Positions 33,001-36,000 of a stretch of 63,885 nt of DNA are shown piece by piece. The stretch comes from a virus. Its lineage: Duplodnaviria; Heunggongvirae; Uroviricota; Caudoviricetes. Made by a program: the position numbers. The stretch lies in the IMG/VR virus record IMGVR_UViG_2718218139_000008, one strand, 5' to 3'. Position 1 is the first letter of the stretch. Every line of letters starts with the position of its first letter.

Positions 33001-36000
33001 TCCTCGCTGATACGCAATTGCAACAATTAAACGGTAATGATTACCTTTTATGTTGAATACCACGCGCCGGTTTTTCAATATACTGGCCGTTCGGTATTGT
33101 GCCTTAATGTCTGCCGGGCTTTTCCAGTCAGCTTTTGCTGCCTCATCCACCCATGCCCTTAGCGGTTGTTCTGCATCAGGATTCTCCGCCCAAAAATCCC
33201 TGAGTGTTTTAACTGAGATGATCTTCATAACTGTATGTTAGTCCCGTTTTGGGACTAATTCAACCGTCCTTAACTACAAATTTAATGATAAAAATATTGA
33301 CCAGTTAAATTTTAATTTGTAGATTGTATCCATCAACCCACCCCGCCCCACAGAACGCAGGGCAATACCTAGAGTTACCCGGCAGTGGTCAGGGGTTAAG
33401 TAGCCAGCCCGAGGCGTATGAACATGACGGCGGGAACACTTTGTATAACAGCGCAGCAGGTTTCAGTTCCGCTACCCCGGCGTTAAGGGGAAATGAGGTC
33501 AACATGTATACGCTCAATCTTGGCAACAACGAATCTCTGGTATGCGGTGTGTTTCCCAACCAGGACGGTACCTTCACCGCGATGACGTATACCAGAAGCA
33601 AAACGTTTAAAACTGAAGCTGGCGCGCGTCGCTGGTTAGCAAGAAACTCTGACTGATGAGGTTGACGATGGAATTTAAAGATTTACCTCCTTCAATCCAG
33701 GAGATTGCAGCACACACACTTCGTCATCGTCTGAACGAACTTGCATTGGAATCGGTAACGAAAAAAGACACTGATAATATGGCTCGTAATGTGTGCGATG
33801 CGTTTACCGGATTGTATTTCTGTGCGTCTGTAAATAAACACGACTCAGAGAGTGTGGCAAATAAAATTGCAGAAACGACAGCGCAAAACATCAATACGAA
33901 ACCAACGGAAGAAGAAATTGATCAGTTTGCTCATGATGCTGGTTTAAAAAACAAGAAAGAAAAATCGCCATATGCGGGGAACATGTTTGTTTATGACAAT
34001 CTCATCAGAATTCGTGGCGAAATTCCGGCGGAATACCTGGCAAGAGTCCATCAGGCATTGCTTAAAAATCTGGAAACAGAATTATTTGATGGCAACACTA
34101 ACGGTTTCTTCATGGTATCAGGCCTTGAGAAAGACTGGGATGCAGAAAAACGCTGGAATGTTGCTACATGGTTATTCAGTAACAGAGCCGCTGCCCTGGA
34201 AGCTTCGGCATGTATTTGCGGCCTGTTCTTAACAGACCACAAATATAATCTGGATGTGTACAGTTATATTTACGCTGAACACGGTCCGCTCTGGATTGAC
34301 TGGTAATTATAAGGAAACACCAGCAGGGCCGCGGCGACCAACAGAACGATTAAAATCAATAATGCCATTATAAAGGACATTATTTAATTTATCGTCGAAT
34401 GCAGATTCTGTGAGCCTCAACTCTGAATGAGTTTTTAATAACCCTGATTGCCTGAGTTGATTTACCAGGCATTCAATCTGTTTTTCAATAAGCGGATTTC
34501 TTTTTTTGTTTGGCATTTTATCCTCCATTGAGGTTCTGGGTTAAAAATGGAGACCAACACGCTGTCACGTGTGGTCGTGCGCCGGACACGGATAAGAATC
34601 CGGCAACACCAGTTTACCACTGGTTAATTTTCCCTGAAAAGTCAGGGCATAACACGAAAGCGTACGGCGAAGTTCGTCTCTCTGTACTTTGTCGTTACAT
34701 TTAATTCGATCGTGCGCTTCCGGTTGTGGCAATCCGCGAAATGGCGCGGCGGTAAGTATGGCGGGGTTATTCCTTCCCCTTGAGGACACCGGGCTGTCAG
34801 GCTGACCATACGCTTAAGTGACAGCCCCGCCACAATATCCATGTGTTGTCTTTGGTGGCATCAGTTCGACTCCGTGACTGCTCTGCCGCCCTTTTTAAAG
34901 TGAATTTTGTGATGCGGTGAATGCGGCTAAGCGCACGCGGAACAGTTAAAACCGTAAAGGGGTCTTTTACGGGGCGTAACGGGCATACTTCTGTATTCCG
35001 GCGTTAATTGTTAACTGGTTAACGTCACCTGGAGGCACCAGGCACTGCATCACAAAATTCATTGTTGAGGACGCGATAATGGAAACGTTATTACAGAACG
35101 TTAATACGTCTGAAGGGTGTTTTGATATTGGTGTTCTGCTCAGTAACCGGGAGTTTACTGAAGATGCCATTAAAATGCGGAAATATGAACCTTATCTTCT
35201 CAATGATAATTCCATACTTTCCAGAATTGCCCTTATTGAACTTGGCATTTTCGGAGAGCGGAAATGACATCAGCGTTTGCACTGGTGATGACGGTTTTCC
35301 TTATAACGGGGGAGCCACAGAATGTGATTACCGGAATTTATTCCAGTAAAGAATCCTGCCATCAGGCAAGAGACGAGCAAAAACTTTCCGGTGAATGTTT
35401 CCCGTTAAAAAAAGTATCGCTGTACCTGAATAACGAAATACCGGCTGGATAACCCGCCAGCCATATTAACGCCATACCAGTTAATTAAACATGCCAGCAA
35501 TGGCAGGGATTCGTTCACCCTGAAATCTGTAATGAGGTTAAAACACAATGAGTAAAGTCTTTATTTGTGCCGCCATTCCTGACGAACAGGCAATAAAAGA
35601 CGAGGGTGCTGTTGCTGTGGCCACGGCCATTGAAGCCGGTGATGAACGTCGCGCCCGCGCAAAATTTCACTGGCAATTCCTGGAACATTATCCGGCTGCT
35701 CAGGACTGCGCTTATAAATTTATTGTCTGCGAGGATAAACCCGGTATATCCCGCCCTGCCCTCGATTCCTGGGATGCTGAATATATGCAGGAAAACCGCT
35801 GGGATGAGGAGTCTGCTTCCTTTGTCCCGGTTGAGACTGAATCATATCCGATGAACGTCACTTTTGACAAGCTGGCCCCTGAAGTACAGAACGCTGTCAT
35901 GGTTAAGTTCGACACATGTGAAAACATCACCGTTGATATGGTGATTAGCGCACAGGAATTGTTACAGGAAGACATGGCAACATTCGACGGACATATCGTT

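Follow-up and report, generated by a model that had tools for sequence, protein, structure and literature searches.

Apparently exchangeable pairs of convergent genes between ydfA and dicF in lambdoid prophages

The stretch of DNA we investigated, IMG/VR virus record IMGVR_UViG_2718218139_000008 (Caudoviricetes; 63,885 nucleotides (nt), all of which is meant when we refer to the window), encodes between ydfA and dicF two convergent genes, one for a protein of 212 amino acids (aa) and one for a basic 69-aa protein that we call p69. Judged from sequence comparisons, the 212-aa protein combines a constant N-terminal domain (N-domain) with an exchangeable acidic C-terminal domain (C-domain), an arrangement that appears to be new, and the C-domain and p69 appear to be inherited and exchanged as a single cassette. 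The proposition that the two also form a functionally matched pair is, in our estimate, evenly balanced. The dicBF operon setting and the DUF1391 family were known; what would be new is the organization into matched, exchangeable and convergent cassettes. Full-text literature searches found no papers on these genes, and a published survey of dicBF loci leaves the non-conserved genes blank in its drawings (PMC5069750). The features at the center of this analysis are:

33504-33656, plus strand: ydfA-like gene, 50 aa, heading the dicBF-type operon
33668-34306, plus strand: gene for the 212-aa two-domain protein (phrog_2151, 3.1e-145)
34307-34516, minus strand: p69 gene, encoding the 69-aa basic protein (phrog_4274, 1.4e-51)
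34517-34640, minus strand: upstream region of p69, with a Shine-Dalgarno (SD) sequence, a hairpin and a weak candidate promoter
34576-34839, plus strand: conserved dicF precursor leader, common to the K-12 Qin prophage and a Salmonella element

The convergent genes and their products

A preliminary description of this DNA had placed three open reading frames (ORFs) between higBA and dicF, at 33504-33656 (plus strand, 50 aa), 33656-34306 (plus strand, 216 aa) and 34307-34528 (minus strand, 73 aa). We find the ORFs at these positions, and the location is borne out by the HigB_toxin match in Pfam and the DicF match in Rfam. All three are real, conserved coding genes; they are conserved across hundreds of genomes, and the variable alignment columns are enriched at the third codon position (11/13/24 columns at positions 1/2/3 for p69, 62/55/92 for the 212-aa gene, and 8/8/22 for ydfA). 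The long ORF most likely begins at the ATG at 33668, giving 212 rather than 216 aa, because a GAGG lies 6 nt upstream, the family members and PHROG 2151 all begin with MEFKDLP, and the Prokaryotic Genome Annotation Pipeline (PGAP) gives 212 aa in O26 and EDL933. A 1-nt overlap with the ydfA stop codon exists only under the longest-ORF reading (ATG at 33656). The start of the minus-strand gene is most likely the ATG at 34516, giving 69 rather than 73 aa, because a GGAGGA is located 4 nt upstream (34526-34521) and both PHROG 4274 and PGAP likewise have 69 aa. The two genes lie tail to tail, their stop codons back to back at 34306/34307 with no gap. Two other gene models were rejected. A hydrophobic 36-aa ORF (34380-34270, minus strand) that overlaps the 3' end of p69 resembles a type I toxin at first sight, but it contains stop codons in variants, and the substitution pattern suits the p69 frame and not its own. 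In a TTG-extended, 110-aa version of ydfA (33324-33656), the DUF1391 match is confined to the last 50 aa and the upstream part is conserved non-coding leader.

The 50-aa ORF had been described as an unknown gene in the place of the small ydf genes; it is itself a ydf gene. Its product matches YdfA/DUF1391 (PF07151), a family of unknown function, over residues 3-49 of 50 (9.5e-30, 102.5 bits against a cut-off of 27.3) as well as phrog_751, and the gene shares 88% nucleotide identity with K-12 ydfA. For the other two proteins the assignment to unknown families stands: neither the 212-aa protein nor p69 has a match in Pfam, NCBIfam, PADLOC or PDB sequences. The weak Pfam matches of the 212-aa protein to RusA (E 0.019) and Pico_P2A (E 0.044) are below threshold, span 29-44 residues and were taken as chance, as were the profile matches of the p69 and C-domain alignments to PDB sequences (the C-terminal segment of Amidase_3, and Noc; E 0.32-1.3).

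The N-domain of the 212-aa protein comprises residues ~1-60 and is helical; it is followed by a linker (residues ~61-99) and the C-domain (residues ~100-212, ~nt 33965-34303). The N-domain is common to about 40 clusters of small enterobacterial prophage proteins, whose C-termini are quite different. In an exhaustive profile search of 1.84 billion representatives, the C-domain was confined to Escherichia and a few Salmonella proteins, and only relatives of the N-domain were found beyond these clusters. The phage record collection contains no near match, only distant N-domain relatives in Shiga toxin (Stx) phages. The AlphaFold2 model of the full-length protein has a mean predicted local distance difference test score (pLDDT) of 63.7 and a predicted template modeling score (pTM) of 0.43; the model of the C-domain (pLDDT 75, pTM 0.69) is a beta-beta-alpha-beta-beta-alpha-beta sandwich. 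A Foldseek search of BFVD with the predicted structure gave nothing below an E-value of 1e-3 and no informative fold.

The C-terminal motif of p69, GRRGPAGxxL, is conserved. The start region of the gene is reused, in that several unrelated small convergent ORFs have the same SD and start context (ATGGAGGATAAAATG). Further upstream, a hairpin (34582-34603) is retained in the consensus built from 54 distinct upstream regions. The same consensus conserves a sequence that might serve as the p69 promoter, TTTTCA (34640-34635), an 18-nt spacer, and TGgTAAACT with the -10 element at 34616-34611, in which only 8 of 12 positions match the promoter consensus. This candidate is not among the sites reported by the promoter scan, whose minus-strand match (34544-34515) overlaps the p69 start codon and cannot serve this gene. 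Codons 5-9 of p69 contain a run of seven A residues (minus strand, 34491-34497), which is shortened to six in 7 of 36 distinct contexts, leaving a p69 of 17 aa. These variants may stem from decay in cryptic prophages, from on/off switching by slippage, or from sequencing errors in the homopolymer.

Co-occurrence and exchange of the cassette

In a survey of 5,426 complete E. coli genomes, in which C-domain DNA and p69 DNA were counted by genome and by place, the C-domain is present in 599 genomes at 750 places and p69 in 596 genomes at 743 places, that is, in about 11% of the genomes, with up to four copies. The carriers include O157:H7 EDL933, O26, O111 and O145. Among 47 distinct 212-aa contexts from IMG/VR and genome loci, 41 have an intact p69 that abuts the 212-aa gene without a gap; in five of the remaining six p69 is frameshifted at the A-run, and one has no detected start. 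The C-domain was seen without p69 at three loci (L064, L075 and L079).

Salmonella has homologues of the C-domain (identity 27-38%, according to the alignment used) behind cox in an element of the int-repressor-cox type; N-terminally, these proteins show no relation to the MEFKDLP domain. The convergent p69 homologue is nevertheless retained, with 55% identity and an invariant GRRGPAGxxL C-terminus. In Escherichia and Salmonella alike the C-domain is acidic (pI 5.3 and 4.8, respectively) and p69 is basic (pI 9.7 and 9.5). The Salmonella element also contains a dicF-leader-like sequence and recE. The leader-like sequence is kept there (L085, ~7150-7215, plus strand; L083, 6820-7368), but an Rfam search finds no DicF. 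The slot closes there with another short sequence that contains a GC hairpin and a T-run (GCGGGAAGGGACACCCGCAATTTTTT), a region that may, from its sequence, encode another small RNA (sRNA) in the position of DicF.

Alignments with other occupants of the slot outline how the cassette may be exchanged. Homology to other cassette types stops within the N-domain codons (33687-33875) and restarts at the p69 start codon (34504-34515), at 34564-34577, or at 34637. The N-domain codons on one side, and the p69 start codon together with the dicF leader on the other, have the appearance of two conserved recombination arms, with the leader as the apparent right-hand border of the variable slot. Each of six C-terminal classes goes with a convergent partner of its own, without cross-pairing (counts are of distinct contexts):

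212-aa class: p69, 43 of 46 evaluable contexts
201-aa class: 63-aa ORF, 5 of 6
135-aa class: 77-aa ORF, 37 of 41
186-aa and 129-aa ("EETA" subtype) class: Zn-ribbon ORF of 61-80 aa, 7 of 7
112/119-aa class: 64-aa ORF, 11 of 12
121-aa class: 66-aa ORF, 3 of 3

The convergent partners of the other cassette types, and ORFs of 162 and 172 aa that are inserted in some loci, have no Pfam or PADLOC match, the sole exception being a 148-aa membrane ORF with two transmembrane segments and a SLATT-like hint (PADLOC E 0.025). Extra convergent genes inserted into the dicF leader, at the equivalent of 34605/34637, were observed in L064 (4478-4996, minus strand), in L073 (the 162-aa ORF) and in L292 (the 148-aa ORF), and accessory genes may thus have another point of entry here. 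The 162- and 172-aa ORFs are related to each other, both being coiled-coil and Cys-rich.

The early operon around the cassette

Gene order and homology place this region at the promoter-proximal end of an early operon of the dicBF (lambda PL-like) type in a lambdoid prophage. The neighboring features are:

31727-32056, minus strand: Cro/YdaS-like gene (Pfam YdaS_toxin)
32030-32069: AT-rich, operator-like repeats between the Cro/YdaS-like and repressor genes, with TACAAATTTAA at 32033-32043
32119-32517, plus strand: gene for a DicA-like helix-turn-helix (HTH) repressor (Pfam HTH_3)
32564-32923, minus strand: higA, antitoxin of the higBA pair (Pfam)
32926-33228, minus strand: higB (Pfam HigB_toxin, 2.9e-33)
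33274-33325, plus strand: PL/dicBp-like promoter from the promoter scan, with -35 TTGACC (33297-33302), a 17-nt spacer and -10 TAGATT (33320-33325)
34840-34891, plus strand: DicF sRNA, a divergent variant (Rfam RF00039)
35079-35267, plus strand: dicB (Pfam DicB, 1.3e-34)
35264-35452, plus strand: DUF1482/ydfD-like gene, in the same operon as dicB
35548-38019, plus strand: RecE-like exonuclease gene, 3' of the DUF1482 gene

As expected for an operon of the dicBF type, ydfA comes first and DicF and dicB follow downstream on the same strand; ydfA, the 212-aa gene, DicF, dicB, the DUF1482 gene and the recE-like gene all lie in this order on the plus strand. The window shares ydfA, the dicF leader, DicF, dicB and the DUF1482/ydfD-like gene with the Qin operon (ydfA-ydfB-ydfC-dicF-dicB-ydfD), in the same order and on the same strand, and like Qin it has a divergent repressor/cro-like gene pair upstream (PMC10448788). 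Nucleotide homology with K-12 Qin covers ydfA (33464-33649) and begins again at 34576 in the dicF leader; therefore the intervening 33650-34575, with the 212-aa gene and the convergent p69, substitutes for ydfB-ydfC, which fill the slot in Qin. The 212-aa protein and p69 are unlike YdfB and YdfC when the translations are compared by eye. The window also differs from Qin in carrying higBA upstream and in the 5' part of DicF. Its DicF scores 51.3 bits against an Rfam gathering score of 48, compared with ~77 bits for the K-12 and O26 copies; the 5' ~20 nt are unlike K-12 DicF, whereas the 3' stem and terminator are identical. The altered 5' part may give this DicF a range of targets different from that in K-12.

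The Qin promoter dicBp, which is similar to lambda PL, is under repression by DicA and gives rise to a single transcript that runs through ydfABC to dicF (PMC10448788). In the window, the motif TACAAATTTAA brackets the PL-like promoter (33275-33285, plus strand, and 33311-33321, minus strand); it has four matches in the 63.9 kb, against ~1.3 expected by chance, and three of them lie either at this promoter or in the repressor/cro-like intergenic region; at least four matches were found in 6 of 100 shuffles. In O26 and EDL933 the -35 element and the leader downstream are kept, and the flanks vary with the immunity type. This leader of ~180 nt (33326-33503, plus strand, CCCACCCCGCCCCACAGAACGCAGGGC...) is highly conserved across prophages of three immunity types and absent from K-12 Qin; it may act as a nut-like site or as some other kind of RNA element. 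Because the Qin operon is repressed by DicA, and because the operator-like motif is common to this promoter and the repressor/cro-like intergenic region, neither ydfA nor the 212-aa gene is likely to be expressed in a lysogen. The preliminary description had argued that genes beside the repressor are expressed in the lysogen. This would not apply to ydfA and the 212-aa gene, which lie behind a PL-like promoter with TACAAATTTAA and are collinear with DicF, dicB and recE; it survives only for the 69-aa gene, whose placement resembles that of genes expressed in a lysogen. From the 212-aa gene to dicF, the only terminator-like feature of the plus strand is a weak hairpin within the conserved leader (34608-34624), and the prediction places no terminator between the 212-aa gene and p69, so that their transcripts would have to overlap.

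The higA/higB toxin-antitoxin (TA) pair is an insertion that separates the repressor gene from the PL-like promoter. The same position is occupied by relBE in O26:H11 11368 and is empty in EDL933, which points to a second small cassette site, here for TA pairs. On the other side of the operon, at 38361-45342, the integrase gene is an N-terminal remnant (Arm-DNA-bind_2), after which come three transposase genes, two of the IS66 family and one of the rve type; judging from the remnant and the IS66 elements, the left end of the prophage looks defective. STnc100, a tRNA cluster and sok are each present in two copies (22057-23333 and 49084-49600; 26741-26915 and 56161-56336), and AgvB is present in a single copy (22057-22118). 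The window probably covers two lambdoid late regions or one large duplication.

Roles of the pair and their alternatives

The explanation we favor, tentatively and in the awareness that it may well be wrong, is that p69 is a factor of the prophage state and the C-domain its neutralizer in the induced state, an antagonist pair split between the lysogenic and the induced program. A repressed prophage would make p69 only, from the strand antisense to the dicF leader and in a slot and orientation like those of sieB. As the effector of the lysogenic state, p69 could exclude or abort other phages, or otherwise put a brake on lytic development. Once the repressor is lifted, transcription from the PL-like promoter would yield YdfA and the 212-aa protein and would proceed antisense through p69, turning it off, while the acidic C-domain would bind and neutralize the p69 left over; the prophage would thereby escape its own factor, following the logic of sieB/esc in P22. 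The sequence data show the gene identities, the operon layout, the shared operator-like motif, the modular architecture, the co-occurrence, the cassette boundaries and the opposite charges; the timing of expression, the binding of p69 by the C-domain, the identity of the effector and the phenotype are all points that we infer. The direction of the antagonism, with p69 as the effector, is suggested by four observations: in the place counts p69 (743) does not exceed the C-domain (750), which also occurs without it; p69 is basic and the 212-aa protein acidic; the slot and orientation equal those of sieB; and, as no terminator is predicted between the genes, PL-type transcription would have to run antisense through p69 to dicF, forming a built-in switch.

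In Rac-type prophages, sieB (Pfam 3e-31) occupies the same slot on the opposite strand, directly after the ydfA/ydaF homologue and inside the PL-type operon. Exclusion functions thus do reside here in relatives, as the preliminary description had supposed. The likeness is one of position and logic: SieB (PF14163) has ~160 aa, whereas p69 has 69, no Pfam match and no transmembrane segments. A sieB system consists of an exclusion factor of the prophage state, which the phage itself must escape. The P22 escape factor Esc is encoded within sieB and not, as the C-domain would be in the window, by a separate convergent gene. The sieB and esc genes of P22 and lambda are said to be treated by Ranade and Poteete (1993). 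The defense role that had been proposed for these genes finds no counterpart in PADLOC-DB 2.0, where the 212-aa protein and p69 match no defense model and the YdfA match to AbiEi (E 0.041, 11.6 bits) was taken as chance; by analogy of position, such a role is plausible for the convergent p69 gene.

Several observations weigh against a matched pair with p69 as its effector. Linkage alone makes neighboring genes co-occur, and the retention of the pair in Salmonella may be plain synteny because the leader and recE are retained too. At the one Stx phage locus examined (phage PA2), the N-domain relative has no convergent gene beside it, and in the short "LHEK" class (104-124 aa) the partner varies, having 73, 48 or 148 aa, or is absent. 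With regard to p69 itself, we found no membrane segment, no similarity to SieB or any defense model, and no convincing sigma-70 promoter (a consensus scan missed the 8/12 candidate). The gene is deleted (34353-34514, internally) in two distinct contexts, which represent three loci; these loci also contain a 640-bp insertion with the 172-aa convergent ORF at 34605/34637. The deletions, together with the frameshifts in 7 of 36 contexts, suggest that p69 is dispensable. Finally, the combination of a constant N-domain, a variable C-terminus and a small partner downstream suits a large-protein effector equally well or better.

The roles may therefore be reversed, although we consider this unlikely: the 212-aa early protein would be the effector, its N-domain targeting or scaffolding and its C-domain acting on a function of the host or of a competitor phage, and p69, as the opposite-strand product of the repressed state, would be a small antidote that buffers leaky derepression or derepression in a subpopulation. 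The dicBF operon otherwise encodes toxic products and turns on spontaneously in a subpopulation (PMC10448788), which suits such an arrangement, as does the finding that N-domain proteins occur without a partner and small partners without an N-domain protein were not seen. So do the tolerated loss of p69 and the way in which the adjoining partner co-varies with the C-terminus. The layout resembles that of pore-forming colicin operons and polymorphic toxin-immunity cassettes (contact-dependent inhibition systems and Rhs), in which an effector gene behind a repressor-controlled promoter has a small cognate gene just downstream on the opposite strand. Further features in common with the pairs described here are a constant N-part, an exchangeable C-part that co-varies with the small gene, and exchange between conserved flanks. 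However, the proteins of the window have no secretion, receptor-binding or translocation domain, no recognizable toxin fold or catalytic motif; they seem to be cytoplasmic and belong to a phage early operon, and the lack of a secretion or delivery domain in the 212-aa protein counts against it as such an effector. Reversed roles would also predict that orphan p69 genes are common and C-domains without p69 rare, and the place counts suggest the opposite. An acidic large and a basic small protein is, moreover, the reverse of the polarity in most toxin-antitoxin pairs. Type II TA systems resemble the pair in having two small adjacent genes of opposite net charge and near-obligate co-occurrence; they differ in that the genes in the window are convergent, not co-transcribed, with one under the control of the prophage repressor, and neither the 212-aa protein nor p69 is homologous to a known toxin or antitoxin family.

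A second alternative, which we hold to be similarly doubtful, is that each gene is an accessory gene ("moron") in its own right and the two are merely neighbors in a recombination hot spot that extends from ydfA to the dicF leader, so that their co-occurrence reflects linkage without coupling. The slot is hypervariable, being filled by ydfB-ydfC, by sieB, by N-domain proteins with or without partners and by extra inserted genes, and the adjacency, the shared leader and recE of the Salmonella block, and the loose partnerships of the LHEK class are all as this alternative would predict. It does not readily explain why the tail-to-tail order survives divergence down to 27-38% identity in the large protein and 55% in p69, along with replacement of the N-domain and a change of the immunity and regulatory module, why six C-terminal classes have private partners that do not cross-pair, why the cassette boundaries enclose exactly the C-terminus and its partner, or why the charges are opposite in both genera. 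Quite improbable, in our view, is that p69 does not act on the 212-aa protein at all and is instead a small nucleic-acid-binding regulator of the dicF leader or early transcript, affecting its processing, termination or translation. Nun of phage HK022, which acts on nut RNA, offers a partial parallel. A regulator of this kind would agree with the basic nature of p69 (pI 9.7), its arginine-rich C-terminal tail with the invariant GRRGPAG, its constant position next to the conserved dicF leader, Salmonella included, and the start region common to several cassette types. On the other hand, no HTH, arginine-rich motif (ARM) or other nucleic-acid-binding family was detected in p69, other cassette types have unrelated and mostly acidic small proteins in the same position, and K-12 Qin processes DicF without such a gene.

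Every copy of the pair is annotated as "hypothetical" despite its prevalence of ~11% in complete E. coli genomes, and the operon that hosts it makes DicF and DicB, whose effects on cell division, metabolism and phage susceptibility are known. Should the matched-pair explanation be wrong, these would be ordinary orphan accessory genes. Should it be right, the stretch from ydfA to dicF would be a cassette site for paired factors that switch with the state of the prophage. More speculatively, and with considerable doubt, the MEFKDLP N-domain proteins and their convergent partners may be an undescribed family of polymorphic, matched effector/antidote cassettes that mediate conflict or recognition among the many co-resident lambdoid prophages of strains of the enterohemorrhagic E. 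coli (EHEC) type. An equally uncertain part of this idea is that the family belongs to the early-left (dicBF) operon of enterobacterial lambdoid prophages, lies between two fixed arms and is split between the lysogenic and induced programs; the exclusion of phages that lack the matching antidote is one conceivable, and no better assured, example of its action. If the matched-pair explanation holds, the cassette site would provide a handle on competition and tolerance among the co-resident lambdoid prophages of Shiga-toxin-producing strains, and would add a convergent, repressor-gated layout to the ways in which prophages join exclusion with self-immunity.

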